From Calditrichota bacterium (lineage in GTDB: Bacteria > Zhuqueibacterota > JdFR-76 > BMS3Abin05), in the NCBI GenBank assembly GCA_013151735.1, contig JAADHR010000131.1, positions 1 through 24,355 of the forward strand: 24,355 bases of DNA. The letters run 5' to 3'. Positions 1,025-18,844 of this stretch are shown piece after piece. The number at the start of each line of letters is the position of its first letter. The first letter of the stretch is position 1. The translations under genes and the position numbers were made by a program. The notes below the pieces were generated by a model, which saw nothing but the letters and a program-made list of their open reading frames with translations, did not search any database and was not told the DNA's origin.

Positions 1025-1032
1025 GGAGAAAG

Positions 1033-2121: not shown

Positions 2122-3432
2122 ATGAGAAGAAAGGTCTCGGTAGAATTTGTCGCAGTTTCACTCATGCTTTTGTTCATGGTTACCCATGCCATGGCTCAGG
2201 AAAAACTTTATCGAAAGGGGCCTTATTTTATAGGCGAAATCACCAAGACCCTTTCTGCAGGGAGAGCGGGCATTCTGGACATTCGGAATAAAAAGGGGGA
2301 CATCACCGTAAAGGGGTGGGATCAACCCAGGGTTCGCATTCAGCAGAAAGTTAAAATGGATGTGATAACGAAATCAGAAGCACAAAAGGGATTTGAATTG
2401 GTGAAAAATTCACTGCATGTGTCCGGGAAACGGATTCTTGTGGACGGGCAAGACTTCCGGTCGTGGATGCGGGTGGATTTTGTTGTGATGGTACCGAGGG
2501 CGTTTAATGTAAACCTGAGGACCAGCGGGGGGGATTTAATCCTTACGAGGCTGAAGGGGAGTGAAGAACTCACGACCAGCGGCGGTGATATTGAAATCCG
2601 TCATGCAGAGGGACAAATTCAAGCCAGAACGTCCGGAGGGGATATTTTGGTAAGAGAAGCCAAAGGGACGCTTGCGCTGGCAACCTCTGGCGGCGATTTG
2701 GAACTCAGCGCAATTACAGGGGTACTGAGTGCGTCGACCTCTGGCGGCGATATTCGTCTGAAAAACTGCGGGGACAGAATTGCGGTGGCAACTTCTGGCG
2801 GGGATATTCAAATCGTAAATACGCGGGGGTATATGAATGCACGAACCTCGGGCGGGAATATTGATGTGAGAGATGCCAATGGACCCTTGCACATCACGAC
2901 GTCGGGCGGTGACATTCAGGCGGTCCGGGTCAGCGGAAATGTGACGGCCAAGACTTCCGGGGGCGACATCGGGATTGAGGATGTTTTAAAACGCGCAACG
3001 GCCATAACCTCCGGCGGGGATATTTCCTTGATGAATATAGGGGATGCGGTAGTTGCCAAAACCTCCGGAGGTGACATAGACATAAAAAATGCAGGGAGCT
3101 CCGTGAATGCAGTCACTTCCGGCGGGAATATCAGCGTTAATATGAACCCCCGCAATTTCAAAACCGATCACCATGCCAAAATCATTTCCTCCGGGGGCGA
3201 TTTGGAGCTGAGTTTGCCTGCAAAGCTCCCGGCATCCATCCATGCCGTTATTCGGATTGAGCACAAATTGTTGCAATCCTATTCCATTACATCTGACTTT
3301 CCGCTTCAGATTCAAAAAAGGGATGAAAAGGGGTGGATTAAACTCATTGAGGCAACCGGCGATATTAACGGCGGCGGAGATAAAATTGAATTGAAAACCG
3401 TTAATGGAAATATTGTGATCAAAAAGAGATGA
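2122..3432 (+). CDS. secreted DUF4097-like putative adhesin / beta-helix protein built from ~13 tandem 18-aa TSGGDI repeats
   Basis: The signal peptide MRRKVSVEFVAVSLMLLFMVTHAMA ends in an AxA site. Twelve consecutive units follow, each TSGG[DN][IL] plus 12 residues, for example TSGGDIEIRHAEGQIQAR. DUF4097 proteins typically sit downstream of sigma/anti-sigma pairs. Confidence 0.75.
   Translation: MRRKVSVEFVAVSLMLLFMVTHAMAQEKLYRKGPYFIGEITKTLSAGRAGILDIRNKKGDITVKGWDQPRVRIQQKVKMDVITKSEAQKGFELVKNSLHVSGKRILVDGQDFRSWMRVDFVVMVPRAFNVNLRTSGGDLILTRLKGSEELTTSGGDIEIRHAEGQIQARTSGGDILVREAKGTLALATSGGDLELSAITGVLSASTSGGDIRLKNCGDRIAVATSGGDIQIVNTRGYMNARTSGGNIDVRDANGPLHITTSGGDIQAVRVSGNVTAKTSGGDIGIEDVLKRATAITSGGDISLMNIGDAVVAKTSGGDIDIKNAGSSVNAVTSGGNISVNMNPRNFKTDHHAKIISSGGDLELSLPAKLPASIHAVIRIEHKLLQSYSITSDFPLQIQKRDEKGWIKLIEATGDINGGGDKIELKTVNGNIVIKKR
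2521..3215 (+). repeat. intragenic 54-nt tandem repeat array (12-13 units) encoding the TSGGDI beta-helix rungs
   Basis: The nucleotide-level motif acctctggcggcgat / acttccggcggggat recurs every 54 nt. The protein shows a strict 18-aa periodicity. Confidence 0.8.
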
Positions 3433-3542: not shown

Positions 3543-5441
3543 TTATTTATCTACCGGGGAAGTCATTCCGCTTGTGTGAACAATCAAAACCGGGATGCTG
3601 ATTTCGTGCCGAACCTTGTCAATAGTCGCTCCGTGAACCCAATCCTCAACACCACGGTGACCATGAGCACCGACAATCAAAAGATCAAAATCATTTTCAT
3701 TAATGGCCTTGATTAATTCATTGGCCGGGTCTCCAAAAAGAAGCAGTGTCTCCACGGGTAAATCTTTCTCTTCTATTTCCCGGGCCAGGTCCTCCAGATA
3801 CGCTTCATCCTGACGGCTGTGGAGACTGGCGCTTTTATCACCGTAAACGATTGTTCCCGGAGCATCCGCAACGTGGATAAGGGTCAAACGCGAGTGATAT
3901 TTTTTGGCCATGGTGACAGCGGCAGAAACAATTTCGGCATCGCGGTCGGAATTTTCAAGCGCCACCGCAATAGTCTTGAATGAAAACGAATGAAGCCGCC
4001 GGGCAATCTTGGCGCCGGTACGCACAATCCCGCTTTCCCACTCCCGGGACACTCCAAAAAACGGGGAAAATGTGATGTAGGCCAGAACCCCCAAAATAAA
4101 AGCGGCTGCCGGAATAATCAACAGCCAGAGGAAAAATGAAGCCCCTGTAAGCCAGCGGGTGAGTTCATCCACAGCCAGTTTTATGTTCAGCACAATGATA
4201 ATGGCGGCCACCGACCAGCTCAGAAATTTCACCCAGTTTTTATTGGCAAATTCGCCCATCTTTTTCTTGTCCGATGTAAAATGAATCAAGGGAATGGTGG
4301 CGAATGGAAGCTGAAGACTTAAAATGACCTGAGACAAAATAAGCAGCCGGTAGGTTCCTTCGCTGCCGGAAATGGCAATAACCACAATAGCCGGCAAAAG
4401 GGCGATGCTGCGTGTGATCAATCGTCTGAGCCAGGGCTGAAGTCGAATGTTTAAAAACCCTTCCATTATGATTTGTCCGGTTAGGGTGCCGGTGAGAGTG
4501 GAGCTTTGTCCGGCGGCAATCAGGGCCACGGCAAAAGCGACCGGCGCAATATGAGTGCCGAGAATGGGTTTTAGCAGTTGATGAGCCTGCTGAATTTCAG
4601 TGACTACAATACCGCGGGAAAAGAAGACGGCTGCCGCCATTATCAAAATAGCCGCATTTACAAAAAAGGCCGCGTTTAATGCCACGGCTGAATCGATGAA
4701 ATTGAATTTGCAGGCTTCGGCTTTTCCGGTGTACGTATTTGAAACGGCCCGGGATTGAACCAGGGAGGAGTGCAGATAGAGGTTGTGCGGCATCACCGTG
4801 GCGCCAATAATTCCGATGGCAATGAAGAGGGCTGACGGCGGCAGGTGAGGCACAAATCCGGCCAAAATTCCTCCCCAATCCGGTTTGGCCAGAAAAATTT
4901 CAATCAGGAAGCAAGAACCAATCATCGCAATAAGGGCCACAATGAACGCTTCCATTTTTCGTACACCCAGCCGTTGAATGGCCAGAAGCAAAAACGTGTC
5001 CAACGCCGTAAGTGCAGCTCCCCAGAGCAGAGGCAATCCGAACAATAAATTCAATCCGATAATTGTTCCCAACAATTCAGCCAGGTCCGTGGCCGCTATG
5101 GCAATTTCGGCCAGAATGTACAGAAAAAAATTCAAGGGTTTGGGATATTCCCGTTTGCAGCCCTGGGCCAAATCGTACCCGGTTACAATTCCAAGTCGTG
5201 CCGAGAGGGTTTGCAAGAGGACCGCCATCATATTCGACATCAACAGAACCCAGATGAGCGTGTAGCCAAACCGGGCGCCCCCTTCAATGTCCGTTGCCCA
5301 GTTTCCGGGGTCCATGTAGCCTACGCTGACGAGATAGGCAGGACCGATAAACGCAAACAGGCGCCGAAACCATCCCCGCTTCCTGACGGGAACCAAATCT
5401 TCCGAAGAGTCTGACTTTGTCGATTGGGTTGTGAAATTCAT
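3543..5441 (-). CDS. mntH: Nramp-family divalent metal (Mn2+/Fe2+) transporter MntH fused to a C-terminal universal stress protein (UspA) domain
   Basis: The Nramp TM1 signature GYMDPGNWATDIEGG and the TM6 signature MPHNLYLHSSLV are both present, with multiple TM helices. The C-terminal ~150 aa read TIAVALENSDRD...LLIVGAHGHRGVEDWVHGATIDKVRHEISIPVLIVH, a typical UspA fold motif. AAGGA lies before the ATG. Confidence 0.85.
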   Translation of the reverse strand: MNFTTQSTKSDSSEDLVPVRKRGWFRRLFAFIGPAYLVSVGYMDPGNWATDIEGGARFGYTLIWVLLMSNMMAVLLQTLSARLGIVTGYDLAQGCKREYPKPLNFFLYILAEIAIAATDLAELLGTIIGLNLLFGLPLLWGAALTALDTFLLLAIQRLGVRKMEAFIVALIAMIGSCFLIEIFLAKPDWGGILAGFVPHLPPSALFIAIGIIGATVMPHNLYLHSSLVQSRAVSNTYTGKAEACKFNFIDSAVALNAAFFVNAAILIMAAAVFFSRGIVVTEIQQAHQLLKPILGTHIAPVAFAVALIAAGQSSTLTGTLTGQIIMEGFLNIRLQPWLRRLITRSIALLPAIVVIAISGSEGTYRLLILSQVILSLQLPFATIPLIHFTSDKKKMGEFANKNWVKFLSWSVAAIIIVLNIKLAVDELTRWLTGASFFLWLLIIPAAAFILGVLAYITFSPFFGVSREWESGIVRTGAKIARRLHSFSFKTIAVALENSDRDAEIVSAAVTMAKKYHSRLTLIHVADAPGTIVYGDKSASLHSRQDEAYLEDLAREIEEKDLPVETLLLFGDPANELIKAINENDFDLLIVGAHGHRGVEDWVHGATIDKVRHEISIPVLIVHTSGMTSPVDK

Positions 5442-5753
5442 AAGTAATCCTTTTTGTCATTTCTTCTTTGTGAAAATAAAAAATCAGGGTGTCCCTATTT
5501 ATTGGGCGGTTCAAGTTGAAGAATTATCATTAAAAATTTCAGCATTTTCAATTTGCTTAATACCTCAAAATGATTGGACTTATCCAAAAATATATTTATA
5601 TTTATCCAAAGAATTTTTCAAAATCAAGCTTTTTTATTTTTATTTGTTTTTCCTCTTGCAATAGGCGCAAGAAGGGATTATATTAAAAAAATTTATTTTG
5701 GGTCAAATCTGCCTGTATACATAAAAAAACAACCCCAATCGAGAGGAATTCCG

Positions 5754-6719
5754 ATGATTTTCTGGTATATTCTCTTAGGTCTTATCGTTTTTCTGGTGAT
5801 TTTATTTGTCATTCTTGCGAAGGCTCGTCGTCCCGATCAGTTGTTGCTCATCGAAAAACACGGCACCGTTCAGCCTTATCTGAAACGCTGGTATTTTTCG
5901 AAATCCGTGCTGGCTTTGCCGGCGACAGTAAAGACCATTTCAACGGAAGTAAAGACGCAGGCCCGCGGGAAAATTGATGTCATTATCAAACTGTCGGTAT
6001 CCTTTTTCCCCGACCCGGAACGCGCCGGAAACCTGATTCGGGTGGGAGGATGGACTCCCGATGCCGTTGACCGCGTCGCTCAAGAGCTGTCCGGGACTGT
6101 GCAGGGGCTGGTTGGGGAACTGGTGGAACCCCTTAACATCACGCAGGTGACGCGGGAGAAATTGTCTCACATGCTGCGGCAAAAGCTTCAGGCTCTGGCG
6201 CCAAGTTTTGGAATTACGGTAACCTCTGTGGTTGTTTCCGACGCGGAGGCAGCGGATCAAAAGATTGCAGACGCCATTCGAAAGCAGGAAGAAGCCCGCA
6301 TTCAGGAGGAAATGGAAAAATCGAGCCAGCGATCCCGAATTGCCACAGAAAAACTGCGTTTGGCGGCGGATGATGAAATTGAGCGCATGAAGCACAAAAT
6401 GGAAATGGAACATCTCAAATTACGGGAAATTGAGGAGCTAAAAGCGGCCGAGCTGGAACAAAAACTACTGGAAAAGGAAACCGAAAAAAAGCGTCTGACG
6501 CTGGCGTTAGAGCAGGAGGAAGCCGAACTGCTGAGCCGGCATCCGGAACTGATGATGCTTACGCCGCAGTTAACCCGATTGGTAGAGGCCAGCCAGCAGC
6601 TTAAGAGCGCGAAAACGGTTATTTCACTTTCGCCTGAAATTCAAGACGGATTACCCAGAATTTTACAGACTCTGCTGGAACTGCTTCAGTCCCGTAAGGG
6701 TCAGGAAAAGGAATCGTGA
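5754..6719 (+). CDS. SPFH/band-7 (flotillin/stomatin-like) membrane protein with C-terminal coiled coil
   Basis: GAGAGG lies 7 nt before the ATG at 5754. The longer ORF from 5574 runs through an AT-rich promoter region and is rejected. An N-terminal TM (MIFWYILLGLIVFLVILFVILA) is followed by a ~200-aa domain with SPFH-like motifs (GITVTSVVVSDAEAADQKIADAIRKQEEARIQ). The C-terminus is a charged heptad region rich in E, K and L. Confidence 0.5.
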   Translation: MIFWYILLGLIVFLVILFVILAKARRPDQLLLIEKHGTVQPYLKRWYFSKSVLALPATVKTISTEVKTQARGKIDVIIKLSVSFFPDPERAGNLIRVGGWTPDAVDRVAQELSGTVQGLVGELVEPLNITQVTREKLSHMLRQKLQALAPSFGITVTSVVVSDAEAADQKIADAIRKQEEARIQEEMEKSSQRSRIATEKLRLAADDEIERMKHKMEMEHLKLREIEELKAAELEQKLLEKETEKKRLTLALEQEEAELLSRHPELMMLTPQLTRLVEASQQLKSAKTVISLSPEIQDGLPRILQTLLELLQSRKGQEKES

Positions 6720-6789: not shown

Positions 6790-6843
6790 AATCTTAATCT
6801 TAGTCTTAATTTTAATCTTAGTCTTAATTTTAATCTTAATCTT
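6790..6843. repeat. nine tandem hexamers (consensus AATCTT) organised as 2 x 18-bp higher-order units (AATCTT-AGTCTT-AATTTT), ending 5 nt before the start codon of the giant ORF
   Basis: The sequence reads aatctt aatctt agtctt aatttt aatctt agtctt aatttt aatctt aatctt. The theme continues into the first codons (atg tcc ttc tta agg). Confidence 0.95.
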
Positions 6844-6848
6844 AAACA

Positions 6849-9800
6849 ATGTCCTTCTTAAGGCTCAAACCCTCTTTCCCATCGCTTGTCGGAGAAATTA
6901 GCAAGCGCACGGCTGATGCACCTGTCGATCCCGAACGGCGCGTGGATTTTCACATTGGGAATCCTGTGCAGGATGACTCACTCGACCGGCTCTACAACGC
7001 CGTTCTTTCCGGAGCAGAGTTTCTACAGCCTTTTGCAGAAGATTTCAACGAAAGCGATTTTCTCTCGGATCTCGATGATCCCGATCTGTCCGAATATTTT
7101 AAGCTTTTGTTTGAAACCTCCCGGAAATCGGTGGCGTATTCGCCGGCCGGCGGATTTTCGCCGGGGAACCCGGGAACCCTGACGCGCAAACTGGAGGCCT
7201 TTTTTAATCGTGTTCAAGACTCACCCACACGATACCATTTTGGGGAAAAAGGCGCTCCGGAATTTGCCCTGGCCTCCGGCGGACGCTGGCAGGCCCTAAA
7301 GCTCTTGCTGCAAGTTCTCTTTGAACAGACCGAATATACCTCAACGCAGGGTCTTGTTTTGGGCCGTTTGCCATACCCCCAAATTCTTGCGGCCTGTTCA
7401 AATCAGGTAACTCTCGTCGAGAATTCAGGCCCTTCCTTCTTTCGGAAGCTGGAAGCCGCCCGCAAAAACTCCAAATCCGACGCGCTGCTGTTTGTTTTGC
7501 TGCTTCAAAAAGTACCCCAGGAGGATCGCAAGCGCCTGGGCGACTTTCTGCAGCAGCACCCCGTTCTTTTGATCGAAGCGAACGACTCTTTGCAGGCCGA
7601 AAGTCTGGCATCTTTTTCAAAACTAAAAGGCCAAATGATTCGCATTTTGTCACCGGCTGTCATTCATCCTTACCTGAACTGGTCCAGCCTGTCTTTCATT
7701 TTGGCTCCGGCGGATGTCATTGCGGCCTTTAACCGCCAGCATTTTAAAAAGATGGGGACACCGTCGGCAAGTGAAATCAAACTGCTGAATTTCTTTTTGG
7801 CAGAAGACGGAACCCTTCTGCCAGATCGGATACCGGGGGGGAAAACGCCCGATTTTTCGCGGTCTGAAACGGCTCAGACAAAGGGCCTCGTTTCAGATGT
7901 GCCGTTTCCGGCAGGCCTGTCTACTTTTCTCAAACGTATCCCCAAAATAGCCGAAGCCATCAGTCAAAATATTCAGCACGAAGCGGCTCGTTTGACCGCC
8001 CGTTCCGAACAGATGGCGGCCCGCCTTTCCGAAAGCATCCCGGGGCGCGGAGAGAAGCAGGGATACCCGCCGGCTCAGGATCCGTTTCTTGGAAGGCGCC
8101 AGGAAGACATGGTTCGGGATTTTTTTCGGAATTTGGGGAATCCGTCGTATCAGGAGGACCTGCAAAAATCGTTTCTGTCCGTTTTTCAATACCTTCATCC
8201 GGAGTATCAGCCGGATCATCTGATTCCGGTGAGCGGTTCCGCACGTACGGCGCTGAGCGCCATGGCCGAATTTTGGGACATTCGGGAAGTGATTGTTCCC
8301 GATTTTAGCTGGACTGTAAATGATGCCTTCCCCCGGGTAACGGCCGTTCCTCTCGGGGAAAACCTTCAATTGGATGCCCGCCGTTTCACTTCAGTCCTGC
8401 AAGAGAAAATGGCGGCTGATTCCAACTGGCGTAACACCGGGGCGGTCATTTTGAACAACCCGCACAACGCGACGGGAAAAATCTGGAATGAACGGGACGT
8501 TGAAGCTGTTTTACTTTTTTGTCTGCAAAACGGAATCCGGGTGATCGACGATCTCTCCTATTCAAATGTGGTGATCGCCTCTGCGGACGCGCGGGCGGAG
8601 CGTGTTCCCGTGAAAACCCTCAAAATGCTGGCCATCGGGGCCGTTTCACAGGGTAAACTTCGCCAGAGTCAGGTACGATTTCTGGTGACACTTCAATCCA
8701 TTTCCAAAACCGATTGTAAAGCCGGTGCCCGGCTGGCCGTCTGTGACGTGCCGGACCCGGTGCTTCGGAAAAAACTTTCTGCAGCACTTGCTCCCATTCC
8801 TCCCAACCTAATGGCTGTTTTCATGAGCACGCTGTTTTACCGGCAGGGGGAGGACAAGGTTGCCCGGTTTGCCCGGCTGAGGGATTGGATTATGTCGGAG
8901 CGGACAAAAGCGCTTCAGCGGGAATTTGAATCGTTGTCGTCGGAGGCGAATCCATATCACATGATTTATGTCTCTCCCGAAGGAGCCATGTACCCGCGTC
9001 TGTTTGTAACCGACATGCCCGGCACGGTTCAGATTGAAAAAATCGCTTTTCAACTGGCCGGGCAGGGGATTGGTCTGATTCCAATGACCAATTTTTCACA
9101 AACGGTGGAAGGATTTGATCTGGCCCGGCGGACGTTTCGACTGACCCTTGGCGGGCGGTTGGAAATGGATACCATTCCTCAAAAGGTTCGGCGGTTGGTC
9201 ACGGAATTGTCGGAACAAATCCGACGCCAGGCCGAAAATTACCACTATTATTCTCTGACGGAATCCGATCTTTTTCGGCAGGTGAAAGCCGATGCGGTTA
9301 CCCAACAGCGGCTGAGGGCGGTTCGGGAAAAATCAGATGCCGTGTTTGAAGAAATTCGAAATCTGGCAGCGAGCGAATTTTTGAACGCATGTCCGGAATG
9401 GGCCCGAAAAAACATGGCCGATTCAACGGCTTTGCAGGATTTCTTGACCCAGTTTTTGCCCAGTCGCTGGAGATTTTTCCAGAACCGGCTTTCTGACTGG
9501 CTTCTGATTCGGGAGGCGGTCCGCCTGAACGCGGAGAGTCCCGTTTTCAGGACCACCGTTCAGGAAAATTTTCTGAAGGAATTACAGATGGAGTCGTCCG
9601 GAACCCGCCGAAGACGCTTTTCGAGGCGCCTGTTCGATCGAACGGTTCATCCCACACAGATGTACTCCCTTCAGGTGGAACAGTGGCTCACACGGCTGGC
9701 AAAGGCGAGTGTGGCTCCGGAGGTGTACACGCCGGTATCCGCAAAAATGCTGTTTCGGGCTCTCGTCCAGGAATACGTTGGCGAAAACGTTCCGATTTCT

Positions 9801-12497
9801 TCCCAGATGGAAGCACAGGAAGCCATTTGCGACCTGGAGGCGCTTCATCTGGCCGAAATCTTCAATGAAATCTTTTTCGGGCACTCGCCGGGCGTCGTTC
9901 TTTCTCTGTGGGGCGATTGGGACGGCAGCACCCGCCCGAGTGGTCAGGGGCACACGTTGGTCAGCGGACCGCTCATTGCCAATATTCGGGCACTAACCCT
10001 GTTGGTTCACGGTCTTCAGAAAGAAAACCGGCTGACCGAGGAGGACCTAAAGCAGTTGGAGAAGATTGGGTCGATTGAAAAGCGAATCGAAAATTTTCAA
10101 AATATTCTGCAAAAGATTACCGGTTTGACCAGCCGCCTGGAAGAAAAATACCGGAAAACCATTCCCCTGGAATATTCACCGGGCAAAATACGGCAGTTTT
10201 TACGAAAGCTCGGCCTCTTGCGCGATCCCCTGAAGTCTATTTGGAAACACAACGACCGGAACGAACGCCGGATGCAGCAGTACCGAAAGCAGCGGTCATC
10301 TGAAATCAAACAATTATTCGAAATCAATCGTATCCTGACCGGGATGGTCGAGGCGGCCGTTTCCCGGAACCGGGAAACACTGCAAACTGCGGACACGTTG
10401 TTTTATTTGCAATCCTACAAAAACTATCTCAAGCGATTTTATTTGACGCCTCGCATCCACCAAAAAATTATTCTGGATAAAGATCAGTTTACAATTGACA
10501 CAACGGTTTACAATTTGGTGGAACTCAATGTTCTGGCTAACCAGTACGGGTACGATGGATTTGTCCTGGTGATTCAGGTCAGCATGGCCAGCAGTGCCAG
10601 GGCCATTTTAACCCTTTACCAGAAATTGTGTGAGGAGAAGGCGCGGGTTTTGCGAAAAATACCGGGTCTGCATTTGCCGGATATCCGGGTTGTTCCCCTG
10701 TTTGAAGAGCTGGAGGCTATTCGGCACATTCCGGAATTCCTGGATGAAATCTGGGCGTTTTCCGAGACCACGCGCAAATTGGGTCAGCCTACGGCCGATC
10801 GTTTTCGGGAAATTATTGGGGAGTTTTTTATTGCGGGTTCTGATTTGAGCCAGCAGGTGGGACAATTGAAGGCGTATTCGCTCTATCAGGATGCGCGGGA
10901 AATGCTGGATCGCTGGATGTGGGAAAAGAACCTGTTGGGGAGAATTCGTATTAAATTCGGCTCGGGAGAATCGCCGCAACGACAGGGAGGCTATTACGAT
11001 GCCACGGGAGGCCGGCCGGTTTTTGTTGAAGAATTTTACGAAAAAAACCCAATCGTTGAGTCAATGGAACCCCTGAAAAGGGTTTCTCTCCGCCACGCCC
11101 GGTCCCCTCTGTCCGGAATTCTCAGCCACAGCGATTTTCGAACCTTCCAGTCAAATGTGATGGAACAGCTCCGCGGACTTCGGGCCCAGGAATTGGCGAA
11201 TGTTTTTAATCACATTCGAATCAAGCAGCAAGACTTCTGGACTCGCGTGCTTTCAAGGGCTTCCCGGCTTCCGGTTGAAGGAGACAAAACCTGGACGATT
11301 CTCCGCCACCTCATTCGCAGGGAGGATGATGCCGTATTTCTGGAATTTCTGGATGATGTACAGACCAATTTTAAGCAGATTGTCTACGGCCGCCCTGAAG
11401 ACATGACGGGTATTCACGTGGTTTCCTATTTCTTGTCCCGGACCCTTTTGCCGCTTCGCGACCGCCCCACGGTCCGGCCAAGCAAGGAACCGGCAGTGGA
11501 TCGAAGCCGGGAAATTGTGGAACGCCTTTCCAGTACACTGCCCCTGGCTACTCACGGAACGCTTTTGCGGGCAATCGGCCACAACAAGGCGCAGACGATT
11601 TTGCTGGGAGTCAATCAATTTACGACAGGGCTTTTCCGCGCGACTTACCAATTTTTGGAACGGGGAAACAGGAACCGACTGGAGTTGTTTCAACAACATA
11701 TTTTGCCTCATCTGCCCGTCCGGGATATTTTGAATACCCTTCGGCTGTATCACGATCCTGAATTAACCTGCGTCCGGCAGGTTGAAGATGTGTTCCCGCC
11801 GGGGAATTCGGCCCTGAAAGCCCTGAAAGAGGATCAGTCCGTTTTGAAAGATTTTGTCCCCCTGTTTCAGGAAGAATTACTGCGGAAAAACGGTGTGTTG
11901 GCAAAAGGGCAACTGCCATCCAGAAAAGAATGGGATGATCTGATTCCATTTCTTCGCCCGGATTTGGCGGTTCTTTTACAGGAAGATATTTTTAACACAC
12001 AGCCTGAAGTGCTGCCCGGATGGGCGCACGTCCCTGAAAGCCTTCGTCCGAAATGGGAAGAGGAGTTTATCAGGCGCCGGATTATTGCTGACACTCGTGA
12101 AAAAATGTGGCACATGCTCCGGGAGCCGATTTCCGAACAGGTGCGGAGTTTTATTGAACTGGCCCGGGCGGTGAAATCGCTGTTTTCGCGCGAGTCCCGA
12201 TTTGAGCCTCCAACAGGCAGTGTTTCGCGTGGGCGTGTGACGCGCCTGGCCTCCCAAATTAATGATATGCTCCGAAATGTAGTGGACGACAGCATGCGTC
12301 AGTTTTTACTGACCGCCGTGCAGTATTTTATTTATTTGCCCGAAACCATGAAAGATATTCCGGAAGAGGTGCTCCTTGCCCTGCGGGACATGGAGAAAAT
12401 TCTCAAATTGGATGAAGAGGCACTCACGCGGGAACAACAAAAAATCCTGCTTTCCTATTTTTTGAAAATGGCACGAATCAGTGGAAATAGCGGATAG
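6849..12497 (+). CDS. 1882-aa multidomain protein: degenerate class I/II aminotransferase-like fold + intact class I/II PLP aminotransferase fold + divergent phosphoenolpyruvate carboxylase (PEPC)-like C-terminal domain
   Basis: This is a single uninterrupted 5.6-kb ORF. Residues ~25-300 carry aminotransferase-like landmarks (VDFHIGNP, YSPAGG, ALASGGRWQAL) but no PLP lysine. Residues ~425-700 carry NLGNPS, IPVSGSARTAL, NNPHNATG, IDDLSYSN and SISKTDCKAGARLA, the class I NPxNPTG motif and the SxSKxxxxxGxRxG PLP-lysine motif. Residues ~790-1882 carry the PEPC motifs in canonical order: TVHPTQ (TAHPTE), SLWGDWDGSTRP (SWMGGDRDGNP), FVLVIQVSMASSARAIL (YVISMAKTPSDVL), VVPLFEELEAI (VVPLFETLDDL), IAGSDLSQQVG (IGYSDSAKDAG), KFGSGESPQRQGG (FHGRGGSIGRGG), LLRAIGHNKAQTILLG (LRAIPWIFAWTQNRLML) and a C-terminal ...ARISGNSG (...AGMRNTG). 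Confidence 0.8.
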   Translation: MSFLRLKPSFPSLVGEISKRTADAPVDPERRVDFHIGNPVQDDSLDRLYNAVLSGAEFLQPFAEDFNESDFLSDLDDPDLSEYFKLLFETSRKSVAYSPAGGFSPGNPGTLTRKLEAFFNRVQDSPTRYHFGEKGAPEFALASGGRWQALKLLLQVLFEQTEYTSTQGLVLGRLPYPQILAACSNQVTLVENSGPSFFRKLEAARKNSKSDALLFVLLLQKVPQEDRKRLGDFLQQHPVLLIEANDSLQAESLASFSKLKGQMIRILSPAVIHPYLNWSSLSFILAPADVIAAFNRQHFKKMGTPSASEIKLLNFFLAEDGTLLPDRIPGGKTPDFSRSETAQTKGLVSDVPFPAGLSTFLKRIPKIAEAISQNIQHEAARLTARSEQMAARLSESIPGRGEKQGYPPAQDPFLGRRQEDMVRDFFRNLGNPSYQEDLQKSFLSVFQYLHPEYQPDHLIPVSGSARTALSAMAEFWDIREVIVPDFSWTVNDAFPRVTAVPLGENLQLDARRFTSVLQEKMAADSNWRNTGAVILNNPHNATGKIWNERDVEAVLLFCLQNGIRVIDDLSYSNVVIASADARAERVPVKTLKMLAIGAVSQGKLRQSQVRFLVTLQSISKTDCKAGARLAVCDVPDPVLRKKLSAALAPIPPNLMAVFMSTLFYRQGEDKVARFARLRDWIMSERTKALQREFESLSSEANPYHMIYVSPEGAMYPRLFVTDMPGTVQIEKIAFQLAGQGIGLIPMTNFSQTVEGFDLARRTFRLTLGGRLEMDTIPQKVRRLVTELSEQIRRQAENYHYYSLTESDLFRQVKADAVTQQRLRAVREKSDAVFEEIRNLAASEFLNACPEWARKNMADSTALQDFLTQFLPSRWRFFQNRLSDWLLIREAVRLNAESPVFRTTVQENFLKELQMESSGTRRRRFSRRLFDRTVHPTQMYSLQVEQWLTRLAKASVAPEVYTPVSAKMLFRALVQEYVGENVPISSQMEAQEAICDLEALHLAEIFNEIFFGHSPGVVLSLWGDWDGSTRPSGQGHTLVSGPLIANIRALTLLVHGLQKENRLTEEDLKQLEKIGSIEKRIENFQNILQKITGLTSRLEEKYRKTIPLEYSPGKIRQFLRKLGLLRDPLKSIWKHNDRNERRMQQYRKQRSSEIKQLFEINRILTGMVEAAVSRNRETLQTADTLFYLQSYKNYLKRFYLTPRIHQKIILDKDQFTIDTTVYNLVELNVLANQYGYDGFVLVIQVSMASSARAILTLYQKLCEEKARVLRKIPGLHLPDIRVVPLFEELEAIRHIPEFLDEIWAFSETTRKLGQPTADRFREIIGEFFIAGSDLSQQVGQLKAYSLYQDAREMLDRWMWEKNLLGRIRIKFGSGESPQRQGGYYDATGGRPVFVEEFYEKNPIVESMEPLKRVSLRHARSPLSGILSHSDFRTFQSNVMEQLRGLRAQELANVFNHIRIKQQDFWTRVLSRASRLPVEGDKTWTILRHLIRREDDAVFLEFLDDVQTNFKQIVYGRPEDMTGIHVVSYFLSRTLLPLRDRPTVRPSKEPAVDRSREIVERLSSTLPLATHGTLLRAIGHNKAQTILLGVNQFTTGLFRATYQFLERGNRNRLELFQQHILPHLPVRDILNTLRLYHDPELTCVRQVEDVFPPGNSALKALKEDQSVLKDFVPLFQEELLRKNGVLAKGQLPSRKEWDDLIPFLRPDLAVLLQEDIFNTQPEVLPGWAHVPESLRPKWEEEFIRRRIIADTREKMWHMLREPISEQVRSFIELARAVKSLFSRESRFEPPTGSVSRGRVTRLASQINDMLRNVVDDSMRQFLLTAVQYFIYLPETMKDIPEEVLLALRDMEKILKLDEEALTREQQKILLSYFLKMARISGNSG

Positions 12498-12501
12498 AAG
12501 A

Positions 12502-13030
12502 AAGACACACCCCTAAATCCGCCTCTTAATAGAGGGGACTTTGGTGGGGTGGTCTTGGGGAGAGCGGGGAAAAAGGTGAAATGCGCTGTTTTTGGTAAGA
12601 TTTTAGGACTTTGCAAGAATAAAAATCCCCTCTTGAGAGGGGTGGTCTGCCTCCGGCAGAGCGGGGTGTGTGACGGTGTTTATTTTTGAGGGTAGTATTT
12701 GAATTTCAAATGGGAAAAGTAAAAGGACACACCCCTAAATCCCCTCTTAATAGAGGGGACTTTGGTGGGGTGGTTTTGGGGAGAGCAGGAAAAAAGTGAA
12801 ATGCGCTGTTTTTGGTAAGATTTTAGGATTTTGCAAGAATTAAAAATCCCCTCTTGAGAGGGGTGGTCGGCCTCCGGCAGAGCGGGGTGTGTGACGGTGT
12901 TTATTTTTGAGGGTAGTATTTGAATTTCAAATGGGAAAAGTGAAAGGACACACCCCTAAATCCCCTCTTAATAGAGGGGACTTTAGTTAAGTGGCTTTGG
13001 GAAAGAAGGGGAAAAAGGGGAAAAGAATTA
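12502..13030. repeat. ~221-bp tandem direct repeat, 2 full near-identical copies (~96%) plus a diverging third partial copy, filling the intergenic region
   Basis: Unit starts (gacacacccc) are at 12504, 12726 and 12947. Each unit has two GC-rich hairpins: cccctc-ttaata-gagggg and cccctc-ttga-gagggg. The second is flanked by an A/T run, giving a minus-strand intrinsic-terminator shape. Each unit also has 9-10-bp terminal inverted repeats gacacacccc...ggggtgtgtgac, a T-tract, and a perfect 15-bp palindrome ATTTGAATTTCAAAT. Confidence 0.9.
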
Positions 13031-13122
13031 CCCCATTCGGGTAAAAATCTGCTTCACACATCTTACATCATTCATCCCCTGATTTGTCAGGGAATACTAC
13101 TCACCCTATCGAGGAGTTAAAA

Positions 13123-14436
13123 ATGAAACCAGAGATTTACGTCATCAGTTTGGGCGCGGATAAACCCAAAGGTGTACCGGGATGGCCAAATGCCGAATTG
13201 GATCCAAAGGAACGGGCAGCAGAACTTTTCAAAAAGGTGAAATCCTTTTTCCCCAATTACACCTTTAGCGGCGGTGAGCTTTTGGACAGTACAAACGATG
13301 CGTTCAATGCATTTAAGGCCCGCGTCGAAAAGGCCCAACCGGATGGTGTGCTCATCTTCGGGCTGGCCATTCCACACCATACCGTGAAGCGTTTTGGTGA
13401 ATTAAACATACCCATGCTCTGGGTGAATGATCCTTATGGCGGCGATCTTTATTATTTGGACGCGATGGAGGTGGGACTTCAGGAGAAATGGCCGTTTGTG
13501 GGGTTGAGTTCGTCCCGTTTTTCCGATATTGGGAAAAAACTGCGTTATTTCGACGTCATTCGTGGATTGCGCGACTCCAGAATTCTGGCCGTCCGGGATC
13601 GTGCGTATCCGGCAGACTATGTGGAAAAAATCAGGCGAAACCTGGGGGTCGAGATTCTTGTTTTGAATCACGAGGCCTTTAATGCCGTGTACGAGAATGT
13701 GTCTGAGGAAGAAGCCAAACAGTGGGCAGAGCGCTGGATTTCGGAAGCAGAAAAGGTGATGGAACCGCAATTTGAGGATGTTCTGGCGGGAGCCAAAACC
13801 TACCTGGCCCTGAAGGAACTCATGGCCCGGGAAAAGGCCAACACCGTCACGGTGGATTGCCTTGATTTGGTTTACAGAAAAAAGATTTCCGCCTATCCCT
13901 GTCTGGCGTTTTTTCAGTTGAACAATGAGGGCTCCACCGGTATTTGCGAGGCAGACATCGATTCGGCCCTCACGCAATTGATTATCCGCTTTTTGGCTGA
14001 ACGTCCGGGGTATGTTTCCGATCCTGTGATTGATCAGGGAACCGGACAGATTGTTTACGCCCATTGTGTAGCGGCCTCCAGGATGAAAGGGCCGAAGCGG
14101 GAAGCCATGCCGTACATTTTGCGGTCGCATGCCGAGGACAATTCGGGCGCCTCGGTTCAGGTAAAAATGACGCCGGGTGAAATTATGTCGACCATAAAAT
14201 TTGATATCAAAACCAATCGGATTGCGTTTCACAAGGGTAAAATCGCAGGCAACATTGACACCGATCGGGCCTGCCGAACAAAGGTAGCCGTGGAAGTGGA
14301 CACGGACGCCCTGGCCCGAAATTACCAGGTGTCAAAATTTGGCTGGCACCGCGTTTCCTTTTACGGCGACTGGGAGACGGAAATCCGCGAGTTGGCTCAG
14401 CTCATGCAGTGGGAATTTTGGGACGAATTAAAATAG
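13123..14436 (+). CDS. hypothetical 438-aa cytoplasmic protein of unknown function (weak, unverified resemblance to sugar-isomerase-like folds)
   Basis: GAGGAG lies 6 nt upstream of the ATG at 13123. The TTG at 13084 is a less likely start. The composition is protein-like, and the internal antisense ORF 13402-14232 looks like a shadow. No motif I can assign with confidence. CEADIDSAL and VYAHCVA are only loosely reminiscent of FucI/AraA-type metal-site motifs. Confidence 0.55.
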   Translation: MKPEIYVISLGADKPKGVPGWPNAELDPKERAAELFKKVKSFFPNYTFSGGELLDSTNDAFNAFKARVEKAQPDGVLIFGLAIPHHTVKRFGELNIPMLWVNDPYGGDLYYLDAMEVGLQEKWPFVGLSSSRFSDIGKKLRYFDVIRGLRDSRILAVRDRAYPADYVEKIRRNLGVEILVLNHEAFNAVYENVSEEEAKQWAERWISEAEKVMEPQFEDVLAGAKTYLALKELMAREKANTVTVDCLDLVYRKKISAYPCLAFFQLNNEGSTGICEADIDSALTQLIIRFLAERPGYVSDPVIDQGTGQIVYAHCVAASRMKGPKREAMPYILRSHAEDNSGASVQVKMTPGEIMSTIKFDIKTNRIAFHKGKIAGNIDTDRACRTKVAVEVDTDALARNYQVSKFGWHRVSFYGDWETEIRELAQLMQWEFWDELK

Positions 14437-14608: not shown

Positions 14609-15268
14609 TTACTTGATTTTTGCTTGTGCTTGTTTCGTTTCTAACTCCACACGAAAACAACGTTCGCCCTCCAATATAAAGGGGGAAAATCCCATTCGGT
14701 GCAAATACCGCTCGTGGACTTTGCCGCCGGGTCGGGTGTAAATAATGAAAAAACCGCGTGAAGTAAAAAACTCGGCTTTGCGGTGGTACACATATTTCCC
14801 AATCTTAAAGTCCCGATATCCGGGAATAACGAAATCGAGTGTAACAAAAAGACTGTGTGTGTCCTGAACGTCGGCAATAAACAGGCCGGCGGGTACCATG
14901 TTGCGCAATACGAAAAAAATAATCAGGTTTTTATCCGGATTGAATTTGAAATCGGGTTGAAATTTTTCAATCTCCGTGGCGTAAAACTCGAGAAAATAGT
15001 TTAAATATTTGGAATCCTTTTTTACCTCCAAAAGCGTGAAGTATTCCTTTGTCCCGAAGATCTGGATTAAAAAGTAGAGGTCAATCAAAACAATTAAAAA
15101 ATTCAGAATCACAATTGGGTACGCATGAATCAGAAATCCGTAAAGCGTAAATGCAGCGGCTCCAATCAAATTTATGATACGCAATTTTAGAATCGAGCTC
15201 ATCATGAGCGAAATGGCAACCAGAATGGAAGCAAAATAGCCAATCAATTCAAATGTACCGATGTGCAT
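14609..15268 (-). CDS. hypothetical membrane protein (3 N-terminal TM helices + ~130-aa soluble C-terminal domain)
   Basis: Hydrophobic stretches are ELIGYFASILVAISLMM, LIGAAAFTLYGFLIHAY and IVILNFLIVLIDLYFLIQIF. The gene is divergent from the histidine kinase gene. No recognisable catalytic motif. Confidence 0.5.
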   Translation of the reverse strand: MHIGTFELIGYFASILVAISLMMSSILKLRIINLIGAAAFTLYGFLIHAYPIVILNFLIVLIDLYFLIQIFGTKEYFTLLEVKKDSKYLNYFLEFYATEIEKFQPDFKFNPDKNLIIFFVLRNMVPAGLFIADVQDTHSLFVTLDFVIPGYRDFKIGKYVYHRKAEFFTSRGFFIIYTRPGGKVHERYLHRMGFSPFILEGERCFRVELETKQAQAKIK

Positions 15269-15547: not shown

Positions 15548-16681
15548 ATGACTCCTAAGTATTCTGCTTTAATTATTAAGCTGAGTCAACTGGTTAAAAT
15601 AGTTTTTATTGCCATTTTGATACTGATTGTAACGCTTTTGCACTACAGTACCAAAACATCTATGCCCCATTGGCACGAAGTCTACAAAACCCTCTATTTT
15701 ATTCCGATTATTTTGGCTGCTTTCTGGTACGATCTGGCAGGTGCTCTCACGACCTCGCTAATTATTAGCCTGGTTTATCTTCCTCATGTTATTTTTCAAT
15801 GGGGAGGAAGTTTCTCTTTCAATAGCAGCCGCATTTTAATGATTCTTCTCTATAATATTATTGCGCTGGTCACGGGCTATCTGGCTCAGCGAGAAAAACA
15901 AGAACGGGCGCGGTATCAGGAGGCAGCAGAAAAACTGGACGATTCGTATGAACGCTTGAAAGCACAGTCCGATCAACTCAGATTGATTGAAGAAAAGCTT
16001 CGTCAAACGGAAAGGCTCTCCACACTGGGGGAGCTGACAGCCAGTTTGGCTCACGAGGTCAGAAATCCGCTGGGGTCCATTAAGGGTGTGGCCGAAATTC
16101 TTTCTGAAGAGTATGCGGAATCGGGAAAGAATCGGGAGTTTGTGGATATTTTGCAGACGGAGGTTTCTCGTCTGAATGAAGTCGTAGGGAACTATTTAAA
16201 TTTTGCCCGGACAAATCGTGTTCAAAAGAAGCCCACAAATATAGTTGAAGTCTTACAGTCCACACTGGCGCTGGTGCGGGTAAAGATAAACCATGCAGGC
16301 ATCCGAATGCGCATTCACCTTCCGGAAGAGGAAGTACCTGTTTTGGGGGATGAGCATTTGCTGCGGCAGGCGCTTTTGAATCTTGTTTTGAATGCAATTA
16401 ATGCCATGCCTAACGGAGGGGATTTGGCGGTAAATTTAAATGAAAAAGAAGAATTGGTCGAAATTTGTTTGAAGGATTCCGGTACAGGTATTCCCCGGAA
16501 TAAGATGAAGGATATTTTTAGGGTATTTTATACCACTCGGGAATCCGGTACCGGATTGGGACTTCCGATTTCGAAGCGAATTATTGAAGAACATGGGGGA
16601 AAATTGCTGCTAAAAAGCGAGTATCAAAAGGGCACACAGGCCATTATTATTTTGCCCAAAATGACTGAAAACCATTCGTAA
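15548..16681 (+). CDS. two-component sensor histidine kinase (membrane-anchored, HisKA + HATPase_c)
   Basis: About four N-terminal TM segments are present. The H-box is LAHEVRNPLGSIKG, the N-box is LLNLVLNAINAM, the G1 box is DSGTGIP and the G2 box is GTGLGL. A coiled-coil linker is present. Confidence 0.85.
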   Translation: MTPKYSALIIKLSQLVKIVFIAILILIVTLLHYSTKTSMPHWHEVYKTLYFIPIILAAFWYDLAGALTTSLIISLVYLPHVIFQWGGSFSFNSSRILMILLYNIIALVTGYLAQREKQERARYQEAAEKLDDSYERLKAQSDQLRLIEEKLRQTERLSTLGELTASLAHEVRNPLGSIKGVAEILSEEYAESGKNREFVDILQTEVSRLNEVVGNYLNFARTNRVQKKPTNIVEVLQSTLALVRVKINHAGIRMRIHLPEEEVPVLGDEHLLRQALLNLVLNAINAMPNGGDLAVNLNEKEELVEICLKDSGTGIPRNKMKDIFRVFYTTRESGTGLGLPISKRIIEEHGGKLLLKSEYQKGTQAIIILPKMTENHS

Positions 16682-16711
16682 GATTTGTGATTTATTTTCA
16701 GGGTACATAAA

Positions 16712-18049: not shown

Positions 18050-18229
18050 GAGAAAGCAGGATACATGCGTTCAGATAACATGCCTATATTCAAACGATCC
18101 ATCAAATAAACGGTAAGAATAAGAACAGGCATCAAAAGGGGGAAGTCAAATCATTCTTGGATTTCTAAACGTGCAGCACTGACGTATCACTTTGGATTGA
18201 TGAAATAATTACAATGAGCTTTGAATATT

Positions 18230-18844
18230 CTATGTGGGGGGCAAGAAATCTTTTGGCAGATCACGTCCTAAGATCGTTATAAAAATCAGTCTTAGATCAG
18301 AAAAGAAGTGGCGATTCTTAAGATAATGCGCTGAAAGTTTAATTTTATGGGGTAAAACCTTTTCCAAATAGTACTTTTCCCAATTCGATGATTGAGCCAA
18401 TACCCTTTCTTCGTTTCTGTAAACCAGGGATGCCGGATCGGTCATTCCGGGTCTGTTTTGAAGTAAGAATTTATAATCATTTTTATAGAACTGAACATAT
18501 TTTGGAACTTCTGGCCTTGATCCTACAAAACTCATCTCTCCCCGAAGAATATTAATGAGCTGTGGAAGCTCATCCAATTTATATTTTCTTAGAAGTTGAC
18601 CCATCCTTGTTATCCGAGAATCGCCGGAAACGGTAATTGAGGCTCCGTTAATATCCCGTTCATTGACCATTGTACGGAATTTTAGGATATCGAACAAAAT
18701 GAGGTTTTTCCCCACCCTTTTTTGTTTAAAAAAAACAGGCCCCCTGGAATCCAATTTAATAAACAATGCAATGAGTAAAAAGAGTGGCAGGAGTACAGCA
18801 AGTGAGATGAGTGAAACGACAAAATCAAAACTTTTTTGAATCAA
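18230..18844 (-). CDS. polyprenyl-phosphate sugar-1-phosphate transferase (PglC/WbaP C-terminal-domain type, Bac_transf family)
   Basis: A single N-terminal TM is followed by the conserved core DSRGPVFFKQKRVGKN...RMGQLLRKYKLDELPQLINILRGEMSFVGSRPE. A 4-nt ATGA overlap with the upstream DegT gene gives translational coupling. Confidence 0.8.
   Translation of the reverse strand: MIQKSFDFVVSLISLAVLLPLFLLIALFIKLDSRGPVFFKQKRVGKNLILFDILKFRTMVNERDINGASITVSGDSRITRMGQLLRKYKLDELPQLINILRGEMSFVGSRPEVPKYVQFYKNDYKFLLQNRPGMTDPASLVYRNEERVLAQSSNWEKYYLEKVLPHKIKLSAHYLKNRHFFSDLRLIFITILGRDLPKDFLPPT

Follow-up and report, generated by a model that had tools for sequence, protein, structure and literature searches.

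We analysed a 24,355-nt stretch of DNA from a Calditrichota bacterium (hereafter the window), in which a preliminary description had noted a giant gene whose product would join two aminotransferase-like folds and a PEP carboxylase (PEPC)-like domain in a single chain. The features of the locus are the following.

5754..6719, + strand: SPFH/Band-7 (stomatin-like) partner gene of ~321 aa, based on Pfam Band_7 and an alignment of orthologues
6849..12497, + strand: whole ORF, 1882 aa plus stop codon
6849..7838, + strand: domain 1, aa 1-330, probably a degenerate fold-type-I PLP-like domain without the lysine (tentative assignment)
7839..8099, + strand: linker, aa 331-417, with a loop of low confidence and then a single long helix (aa 355-396)
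8100..9233, + strand: domain 2, aa 418-795, class-I aminotransferase domain with the full set of PLP-site residues
9234..12494, + strand: domain 3, aa 796-1882, complete and highly divergent PEPC-superfamily barrel

Region 6849..12497 of the + strand is indeed one ORF, encoding 1882 aa and ending at a stop codon, so that the single-chain giant fusion was borne out, and the landmark motifs quoted in the preliminary description were all found at the residues given there. A hydropathy scan did not reveal a TM segment in the 1882-aa protein. The ORF product is 100% identical to P0001, a protein of a Calditrichaeota MAG that is annotated only as aminotransferase. Rfam gave no match in the window. 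The best explanation of the locus is a two-gene unit, in which the gene for a membrane-anchored SPFH scaffold is followed by that for a cytoplasmic three-module enzyme of 1,882 aa.

At the N-terminus of the partner protein lies one TM helix, seen as a hydropathy peak over aa 1-28 and followed by the sequence KARR; next come an SPFH domain and a C-terminal half that is charged and rich in E, K, R and A. The protein matched Pfam Band_7 (PF01145) with E=1.9e-6 and 28.5 bits, the cut-off being 23.6, and there was a weak PH stomatin match; the alignment of the partner contained 5 orthologues. Mechanically, the partner ORF opens at TTG 5574; homologues and an SD-like GAGAGGA sequence favour ATG 5754 as its start. 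The preliminary description made no mention of this SPFH/Band-7 neighbour.

In 73 of the 74 genome loci with upstream sequence, the gene directly upstream of the giant gene is an SPFH gene in the same orientation, and the pairing was recovered also when distant SPFH homologues were taken as the starting point. All-vs-all clustering of the flanking ORFs of 80 loci did not identify conserved neighbours other than the SPFH gene, and the PADLOC models for anti-phage defence gave no match for the SPFH protein, the giant protein or two unknown neighbours.

The preliminary description had proposed a search for colinear homologues, and these proved to be abundant. More than 100 full-length protein clusters share the colinear architecture, and the fused family is carried by at least 347 species genomes from several phyla. 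Carriers include Calditrichota, Ignavibacteriota, KSB1, Marinimicrobia, Bacteroidota, Acidobacteriota and Anaerolineae, and the carrier lineages are from sediment, groundwater and soil; one carrier is a MAG labelled Melioribacter roseus. An assembly or gene-fusion artefact is ruled out by the >100 independent full-length clusters and the 347 genomes, all colinear. Thus, the whole architecture, together with the SPFH neighbour, is conserved across several phyla. Residue conservation was scored in an alignment of 56 full-length homologues displaying 32-82% identity.

For the central part of the protein, a class I/II aminotransferase had been read from residues ~425-700. Residues 457-711 matched PF00155 with 43.2 bits (cut-off 19.7; E=3.8e-11), and domain 2 has the structure of fold type I. 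The landmarks are NNPHNATG (536-543), IDDLSY (566-571) and SISKTDCKAGARLA (617-630), and K620, encoded by AAA at nt 8706-8708, corresponds in the alignment to the lysine of the SxSK motif in 3dzz. The PLP-site set consists of W488, N540, D568, Y571, S617/S619, K620, R628 and R764; of these, N540, D568, Y571, S619, K620, R628 and R764 are invariant in 56 out of 56 full-length homologues, and W488 is invariant across phyla. Together these results establish that aa ~418-795 constitute a class-I aminotransferase domain in which every PLP-binding and substrate-carboxylate residue is invariant. Its best structural neighbours are LysN, kynurenine and glutamine aminotransferases and C-S lyases, and not specifically aspartate aminotransferases.

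The second aminotransferase-like fold of the preliminary description, at aa 1-320, was borne out to a lesser extent. Domain 1 did not produce a Pfam match. In hhalign it gave a weak, in-register alignment with domain 2 (E=0.008) and likewise a weak, in-register one with canonical aminotransferases (E=0.046 over 226 colinear columns). The AF2 model (pLDDT 88.8, pTM 0.87) shows beta/alpha units in domain 1, with seven listed strands in a pattern that parallels domain 2. In addition, domain 1 has retained two class-I motifs of the N-terminal part, HIGNP (35-39) and Y97-x-P-x-G-G, in which Y97, G37, P39, G101 and G102 are invariant, and it has P or A at the position where a canonical aminotransferase carries the PLP lysine. 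These observations tentatively point to a degenerate, lysine-less fold-type-I PLP-like domain at aa 1-330. The linker that follows is poorly conserved, and its pLDDT drops below 50 at aa 332-354 and 396-403, on either side of the helix at 355-396. We infer that domain 1 would be a dead PLP-domain copy that pairs with domain 2 within the chain; the resulting pseudo-dimer would have one active site only, in which the invariant Y97 would serve as the in-trans tyrosine touching the PLP phosphate.

A tandem PLP module could also act as an amino-acid sensor of the GabR/MocR type, exerting allosteric control on the PEPC-like domain in place of the Asp/malate site found in classical PEPC, and would then not turn over substrate. 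The effector domain of GabR/MocR proteins binds PLP and an amino-acid effector. We consider this distinctly unlikely, since R764, which would contact the alpha-carboxylate, as well as N540, D568, Y571, R628 and W488 are invariant across phyla, as in working aminotransferases, and the best structural matches are enzymes. Moreover, the Pfam scan did not detect an HTH or any other signalling output domain, and the N-terminal winged-HTH domain of MocR/GabR-type proteins is absent from the 1,882-aa protein.

PEPC is a central anaplerotic, carbon-fixing enzyme, of which two structural types, bacterial/plant and archaeal, are in common use. The preliminary description had read PEPC landmark motifs, in the canonical order, from residues ~790-1882. 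Their positions were verified: VHPTQ 933-937, LWGDWDGS 1020-1027, IQVSMA 1242-1247, VVPLFEE 1281-1287, IAGSDLSQQ 1328-1336, KFGSGESPQRQGG 1369-1381, LRAIGHN 1573-1579 and a C-terminal GNSG. An alignment to 11 PEPCs showed that these motifs are colinear with the PEPC hallmark motifs. Since the best 120 homologues of E. coli Ppc were all enterobacterial and at least 81% identical, we used instead this diverse 11-sequence set, which was built from plasmid and chromid records.

Profile searches gave a different picture. The preliminary description had named a match to PF00311 as support; however, neither PF00311 nor PF14010 was matched at E<1 in a Pfam scan of the 1,882-aa protein, and TIGR02751 scored 11.6 bits against a cut-off of 146 in the NCBIfam scan. 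Similarity to E. coli Ppc was not significant in BLASTP, PDB sequences searched with a profile of the 56 aligned homologues gave aminotransferases only among the best 60 of 70 matches, and in hhalign the family profile aligned weakly with E. coli Ppc (E=0.08) and with the 11 PEPCs (E=0.031). Taken alone, the missing Pfam match and the BLASTP and PDB results would favour the view that the motif matches are coincidental and that the C-terminal ~1,090 aa form an unrelated helical domain. We give this view practically no credence, as it is refuted by two observations. First, the predicted fold of the C-terminal module is that of PEPC, and hence the structural similarity to PEPC expected for the C-terminal ~1100 aa was indeed obtained. 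Second, domain 3 aligned in hhalign with E=1.4e-42 over 655 columns to a family of divergent PEPC-like proteins from metagenomes, which are stand-alone and 865-1070 aa long (P0319, P0324, P0328, P0352 and others). The sequence link between domain 3 and PEPC is thus only transitive, through these stand-alone relatives.

Conservation of individual residues leads to the same conclusion. In the 56 homologues, H934 (nt 9648-9650) aligns to the E. coli catalytic H138, E1286 (nt 10704-10706) and D1332 (nt 10842-10844) to the metal ligands E506 and D543, R1378 (nt 10980-10982) to the mobile-loop R587, and R1574 to the PEP-phosphate-binding R699, and each is invariant (56/56). R1539 and R1543, which align to PEP-phosphate binders, are equally invariant, as is R1029, the match of which to R396 comes only from a low-confidence alignment; 55 of the 56 end in a glycine at the position of G1882. 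R396 and R713 are, like R699, PEP-phosphate binders, and no equivalent of R713 was found in domain 3 in the alignment to PEPCs. That the motifs are (nearly) invariant in 56 homologues, colinear with those of PEPC and accompanied by a PEPC predicted fold shows that they are not due to chance. Thus, aa ~796-1882 constitute a full-length PEPC-superfamily barrel in which the catalytic His and the two ligands of the divalent metal have been kept, as have, by alignment, several of the Arg residues that bind phosphate. Altogether, the fold and architecture statements for the 1,882-aa protein are very probably correct.

The active site of the barrel has been remodelled in other respects. GGDRDGNP appears in domain 3 as WDGSxRPSGQGH, and the loop of the fused family reads K-x-G-S-G-E-x-x-Q-R-Q-G-G in place of FHGRGGxxGRGG. 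The equivalent of H579 is L, M or F and that of R581 is S, A or C in the 56 homologues, and the equivalent of K546 is Q in all 56; of H579, R581, R587 and K546, therefore, only the R587 equivalent is kept. The maize equivalent of K546 has been linked to bicarbonate handling, and its replacement implies that carboxylation itself may be lost or changed. A rival possibility is that the barrel carries out other chemistry without PEP carboxylation, acting as an oxaloacetate decarboxylase/lyase, a PEP phosphotransferase/hydrolase, or a carboxylase on another enolate. The barrel and the aminotransferase would then work in a two-step pathway that is possibly catabolic, such as Asp to oxaloacetate to pyruvate. 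Altered chemistry of this kind is a rather unlikely alternative, given that the HPT His and the invariant R1029, R1378, R1539, R1543 and R1574, including the mobile-loop Arg, have been retained; this His and Arg cluster argues for a phosphorylated substrate and for phosphoryl transfer of the PEPC type rather than plain decarboxylation.

A reaction sequence can be proposed for the retained sites. The barrel would bind Mg2+/Mn2+ and PEP, or a closely related phospho-enol/oxo-acid, and would produce an oxo-acid, most simply oxaloacetate from PEP and HCO3-. The fused aminotransferase would turn this oxo-acid into an amino acid, which would be aspartate if the oxo-acid is oxaloacetate. A generic coupled enzyme that forms and transaminates an oxo-acid is quite possible, and we put it forward tentatively; the specific reaction from PEP through oxaloacetate to Asp would be a less probable case. 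The channelling of PEP, HCO3- and Glu to Asp is likewise putative, though plausible.

The pairing with the SPFH gene has to be accounted for as well. The bulk of the SPFH scaffold would face the cytoplasm, and the SPFH protein would hold or organise the enzyme at the inner face of the membrane. To our knowledge, few enzyme clients of SPFH proteins are known, and one would not expect a plain anaplerotic enzyme to come almost obligatorily with an SPFH membrane scaffold. The strict coupling to the scaffold gene, the already degenerate state of one PLP-like domain and the altered PEPC loop residues are what would be seen if the giant protein were a non-catalytic, structural or regulatory partner of the SPFH assembly, such as the cargo or an adaptor in a membrane microdomain, with both of its modules being pseudo-enzymes. 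The catalysis and cofactor residues K620, D568, H934, E1286, D1332 and R1378, however, are invariant at 32-37% overall identity, which makes such a role very improbable. The enzymatic reading can be extended further, although this extension is doubtful: the SPFH scaffold and the tri-modular protein might form an unrecognised membrane-associated enzyme system, in which a remodelled PEPC-type barrel and a single PLP site carry out coupled chemistry new to both parent families. In one version of it, a scaffolded PEP-to-amino-acid synthase would replace the separate anaplerotic and transaminase steps in the FCB group, Acidobacteriota and Anaerolineae; in another version, a new PEP-dependent reaction would take place on a PLP-bound intermediate.

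In agreement with the novelty claimed in the preliminary description, our literature search did not find a paper describing an aminotransferase-PEPC fusion or a link between SPFH proteins and PEPC. Public annotation labels the fused family only "aminotransferase", leaving the PEPC part undetected. A pseudo-dimeric, single-site aminotransferase joined covalently to the PEPC-like barrel would represent a new organisation of carbon and nitrogen entry into the aspartate family, and the same would apply to a dedicated SPFH membrane scaffold. The central metabolism of the carrier lineages is inferred almost wholly from annotation, and a mis-annotated anaplerotic step would alter metabolic reconstructions. 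For SPFH biology, too, the pairing with an enzyme is of interest.

The systems closest to domain 2 are the class-I aminotransferases (PF00155), such as LysN (2EGY), kynurenine aminotransferase (3AOV), glutamine aminotransferase (1V2D) and the PatB/MalY C-S lyases. Whereas these are homodimers of identical subunits, domain 2 would follow a lysine-less copy in the same chain. Such a proposed arrangement would have a counterpart in single-chain GcvP, the glycine decarboxylase P-protein, in which a lysine-less N-terminal PLP-fold half and a lysine-bearing C-terminal half form one active site per chain. The likeness lies in the tandem of a dead and an active fold-type-I domain; there is no sequence-family relationship, and the 1,882-aa protein gave no GDC-P Pfam match. 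An aminotransferase fused N-terminally to another enzyme is found in Mycoplasma penetrans MetRS, for which substrate supply or channelling has been proposed (PMC13215547, PMC7694997). That aminotransferase is of the AGAT class, is joined to a different enzyme and forms a true dimer (PMC13215547, PMC7694997), whereas a pseudo-dimer would be formed here.

Domain 3 shares its fold, catalytic His and metal ligands with bacterial/plant-type PEPC (PF00311; E. coli Ppc, 1JQN; Flaveria, 3ZGE), but its scores do not reach the thresholds of Pfam and NCBIfam, and it is ~200 aa longer. It is also preceded in the chain by 800 aa of PLP-fold domains, and its gene is operonic with that of an SPFH protein. 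Archaeal-type PEPC (PepcA; PF14010, TIGR02751; Clostridium perfringens, 3ODM) is a stand-alone protein of ~525 aa, as compared with ~1,087 aa for domain 3. The stand-alone PEPC-like proteins are clear homologues of domain 3, with which they share HP(S/T)Q, WxD(F/W)DG..R, AGSD(L/S)S and K(L/F)G(T/S)GE..(F/Q)RQ. Unlike the fused family, they are without aminotransferase domains and have kept the SDSxK Lys that is Q in the fused family; in three genomic contexts their genes had neither an SPFH neighbour nor an adjacent aminotransferase gene. Together with these relatives, the fused family would be a third, very divergent PEPC clade. Finally, the partner protein resembles SPFH/Band-7 scaffolds such as stomatin, HflK/C and flotillin in having an N-terminal membrane anchor and an SPFH domain. 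The usual operon partners of SPFH genes encode NfeD proteins or the FtsH protease, whereas the dedicated partner here is a giant enzyme of metabolic type.

The giant ORF had been read from its translation as a fusion of two aminotransferase-like folds with a divergent PEP carboxylase (PEPC)-like domain.

6849..12497, plus strand: giant ORF, a single uninterrupted reading frame of 1,882 aa

All landmarks of that preliminary description were recovered at the residues claimed. The aminotransferase landmarks NNPHNATG (residues 536-543), IDDLSY (566-571) and SISKTDCKAGARLA (617-630) are present, the codon of the PLP-lysine K620 being AAA at nt 8706-8708, and so are the C-terminal landmarks VHPTQ (933-937), LWGDWDGS (1020-1027), IQVSMA (1242-1247), VVPLFEE (1281-1287), IAGSDLSQQ (1328-1336), KFGSGESPQRQGG (1369-1381), LRAIGHN (1573-1579) and a C-terminal GNSG. 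The protein matches at 100% P0001, a Calditrichaeota MAG protein whose sole annotation is "aminotransferase class I/II-fold PLP-dependent enzyme". When colinear homologues were sought among 5.8 billion protein clusters, 103 matches were obtained, nearly all of them 1,800-1,920 aa long and colinear across 98-100% of the query (32-82% identity); all 103 carry the PF00155 label only. With one genome scanned per GTDB species, relatives were encoded in 347 genomes, the best 80 of which are all MAGs, with labels that include Calditrichota/Caldithrix, Ignavibacteriota/Melioribacter, KSB1, Marinimicrobia, Bacteroidota, Acidobacteriota (Bryobacteraceae, Solibacteraceae), Chloroflexota/Anaerolineae and Kryptoniota. 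The alignment of 56 full-length homologues has a mean column identity of 53%, and its ~190 invariant columns are grouped in the landmark motifs. The giant protein is real and conserved, and not an assembly artefact.

Judged by its sequence, domain 2 (aa 418-795) is a bona fide PF00155 member, generic as to subfamily and substrate. Pfam confirmed the aminotransferase claim: residues 457-711 match PF00155 with 43.2 bits (cut-off 19.7; E=3.8e-11). In NCBIfam and among PDB sequences the matches were generic class-I aminotransferases or C-S lyases only (for the PDB profile search, among the best 60 of 70 matches), and the SxSK lysine of PDB 3dzz pairs with K620. W488, N540, D568, Y571, S619, K620, R628 and R764 are invariant in all 56 sequences, and S617 in 55; from class-I family knowledge we take these residues to serve in PLP stacking, in binding of O3', N1 and phosphate, in Schiff base formation and in holding the substrate alpha-carboxylate.

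An aminotransferase-like fold is likely also for domain 1 (aa 1-330), although the family profiles of Pfam, NCBIfam and PDB sequences gave no match to this region. AF2 models it confidently as an alpha/beta domain with a strand/helix order like that of domain 2, seven listed strands each. Profile comparison was weak both with domain 2 (E=0.008) and with two canonical aminotransferases encoded at locus L003 (E=0.046, 226 colinear columns), but these independent comparisons share one register. In that register PYxPRGG, with the invariant Y97, corresponds to the canonical YxPxxG, ILASGG corresponds to S/T-x-G, and the PLP-lysine position is P or A. Domain 1 would be a degenerate copy lacking the lysine; paired with domain 2 as a pseudo-dimer within the chain, it would leave one active site, to which Y97 may supply the in-trans tyrosine. 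Such a pairing of lysine-less and active copies has a known precedent in the single-chain form of glycine decarboxylase P-protein.

The claim that the C-terminal part is a PEPC failed in Pfam, where neither PF00311 nor PF14010 gave a match at E<1. TIGR02751 reached only E=0.091 (aa 1271-1353), the fused-family profile aligned to E. coli Ppc at E=0.08 (hhalign), and BLASTP against E. coli Ppc gave no significant match. phmmer, run exhaustively over 1.84 billion representatives with the C-terminal 1,093 aa as query, recovered the fused family and also stand-alone proteins of 865-1,070 aa without aminotransferase domains (E=1e-13 to 1e-6 across the catalytic core). The stand-alone proteins match TIGR02751 at 7e-11, and several exceed the Pfam PEPcase_2 cut-off (P0328, 32.8 bits; P0352, 29.9 bits) or, for P0352, also that of PF00311 (25.2 bits), the match spanning only ~100-150 residues in some of them. 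In local profile-profile comparison the fused domain aligned with the stand-alone family (E=1.4e-42, 655 columns) and the latter with a diverse set of 11 canonical PEPCs (87% probability, E=3.7e-6), which closed the chain from fused domain to canonical PEPC. Coincidental motif matches are ruled out by the predicted PEPC fold together with this chain. Because PF00311 and PF14010/TIGR02751 membership failed and three conserved PEPC residues are absent, we do not call domain 3 (aa 796-1882) a PEPC but place it, with the stand-alone relatives, in a new and divergent PEPC-superfamily branch.

The stand-alone family (P0319, P0324, P0328, P0340, P0347, P0351, P0352, P0356, P0358, P0360, P0361 and P0363; 865-1,108 aa) is separate and uncharacterised, with its own motif set HPSQ, WxDFDGAKR, AGSDxSK, KLGTGExxFRQGG and C-terminal GxGM; it is represented at loci L017, L098 and L099, where gene contexts are uninformative. 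Another architecture is seen in P0339 (1694 aa), in which the same divergent core, truncated, lies at the C-terminus (aa ~1300-1694) behind ~1,250 aa consisting of a helix-rich stretch and then a glycine-/hydrophobic-rich stretch that may be membrane-embedded; P0339 had no Pfam match.

Active-site residues were paired by a permissive hhalign comparison of the fused-domain profile with the 11 PEPCs, a single colinear alignment of 617 columns that alone reaches only E=0.031.

Residues and motifs of E. coli PEPC (left) and their counterparts in the giant protein (right)
TAHPTE H138: H934
WxGGDR R396: WDGSxR R1029
YVISMA: LQVSMS
PLFE E506: E1286
GYSDS D543: D1332
GRGG R587: R1378
GSRPxxR: RDRPTVR, R1539 and R1543
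LRAIPW R699: R1574
LQxELL: FQxELL
C-terminal Gly: G1882

The paired residues are invariant (56/56) save G1882 (55/56), and since H934 minus 138 gives 796, the module starts where a whole PEPC would. The fused family also differs from E. coli PEPC, at K546, which is Q1335 in the giant protein and Q in 56/56 sequences, whereas the stand-alone relatives keep this Lys of SDSxK; at H579, replaced by L/M/F; at R581, replaced by S/A/C; and at GGDRDGNP, rebuilt as WDGSxRPSGQGH. No equivalent of R713 was identified in the alignment to the 11 PEPCs. As far as can be read from these pairings, the barrel keeps its catalytic His, its metal ligands and most Arg residues that bind phosphate. On the E. coli residue roles that we take from the PEPC structural literature, the catalytic His and the sites for metal and PEP phosphate appear to be preserved, and parts of the mobile loop are changed, as is the Lys that has been linked to bicarbonate handling. 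An altered barrel chemistry is suggested by K546Q, H579L and R581S, which are invariant changes, and by the position of the barrel in a separate clade; we consider it possible but doubtful.

The giant gene is preceded by a gene for an SPFH protein.

5754..6719, plus strand: SPFH gene (mechanical ORF 5574-6719); start most likely ATG 5754, from orthologue alignment and an SD-like GAGAGGA

Its product is a ~321-aa Band_7/SPFH protein (Pfam E=1.9e-6; the PH stomatin match is weak) whose C-terminal half is rich in charged residues. KARR comes directly after its single, N-terminal TM helix, and by the positive-inside rule its bulk should face the cytoplasm. Of the 80 genome loci scanned with an HMM built from five orthologues, 74 hold upstream sequence, and in 73 of these an orthologue directly precedes the giant gene on its strand, with gaps mostly of 20-200 nt; the lone exception, L057, is one and the same contig as L004. 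No other conserved neighbour emerged when the flank ORFs of the 80 loci were all clustered. In the reverse direction, the SPFH homologues of lowest identity (30-39%) among those found directly precede an aminotransferase-labelled gene for 1,884 aa (L100) and, at L101, a gene cut by the contig end. The giant gene is strictly co-conserved with a membrane-anchored SPFH protein. No TM segment was found in the giant protein, and PADLOC defence models matched neither protein.

At L003 (15746-19565), a distant carrier with 36% identity, PEP/OAA/Asp-related genes come after the giant gene: one for a SIS-domain regulator, one for a class-I aminotransferase of its own and one for an ATP-dependent PEP carboxykinase. 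Other loci do not keep this arrangement. Two genes upstream of the giant ORF, a single gene (3543-5441, minus strand, 632 aa) encodes a divalent-metal transporter of the Nramp family with a universal stress protein (Usp) domain fused at its C-terminus; L002, a relative with 57% identity, has this Nramp-Usp gene in the corresponding position. As PEPC-type enzymes require Mn2+ or Mg2+, a link is conceivable.

Directly before the giant ATG lies a simple repeat (6790-6845; (AATCTT) x ~9, or an 18-nt unit x 3.1), and no Shine-Dalgarno-like sequence is evident before the start codon. The two closest relatives (L018, L019) have shorter versions there, so repeat length varies within the lineage; the repeat is absent from more distant ones. 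Right after the stop codon, a tandem direct repeat (12496-13022; unit ~221 nt, ~2.4 copies, 88-92% identity) carries in each unit two GC-rich hairpins, CCCCTCTTAATAGAGGGG and CCCCTCTTGAGAGGGG, some terminator-like by score; the hairpin motif was not found elsewhere in the window and had no Rfam match. Next come ORFs of 450 aa (13084-14436, plus strand) and 219 aa (14609-15268, minus strand) without Pfam or PADLOC match, and L002 has unannotated genes of similar size in these positions (403 aa, plus; 214 aa, minus). At 458-2016 (plus strand) lie genes for an ECF sigma factor (188 aa) and then an anti-sigma-like protein (zf-HC2 with C-terminal HEAT repeats, 327 aa), followed by a 436-aa ORF (2122-3432) without family match. 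Region 15548-24334, with a GC content of ~0.38-0.44 over most of its length against ~0.48-0.54 over the giant ORF, encodes a histidine kinase, a sigma-54-dependent response regulator and a polysaccharide-type cluster (Bac_transf sugar transferase, DegT aminotransferase, an 811-aa beta-helix/CBM9 protein, a GT2 glycosyltransferase and an asparagine synthase gene end).

We regard it as very probable that the giant protein combines a PLP-equipped class-I aminotransferase domain with a complete PEPC-superfamily barrel; that it is a pseudo-enzyme or scaffold partner seems highly improbable. In the proposed mechanism a barrel with bound Mg2+/Mn2+ and PEP, or a near relative of PEP, would make an oxo-acid, most simply oxaloacetate from PEP and HCO3-, which the single-site pseudo-dimeric aminotransferase would turn into an amino acid, aspartate if the oxo-acid is oxaloacetate, and an SPFH assembly may keep the enzyme at the inner membrane face. 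Such coupling of oxo-acid formation to transamination is a tentative proposal, with chances somewhat short of even, and the specific route from PEP through oxaloacetate to aspartate is rather unlikely.

Full-text literature searching turned up neither a PEPC-aminotransferase fusion nor an SPFH-PEPC pairing. The family is notable for being widespread and mis-annotated, for its remodelled active site and for its tie to an SPFH scaffold; the component folds were already known. The giant protein resembles a PEPC joined to an aminotransferase, yet lies outside PF00311 and PF14010/TIGR02751 membership; the closest conceptual precedent found is the MetRS-aminotransferase fusion of M. penetrans (PMC13215547), and what is new here is the architecture in which the known folds are combined, together with the partner.
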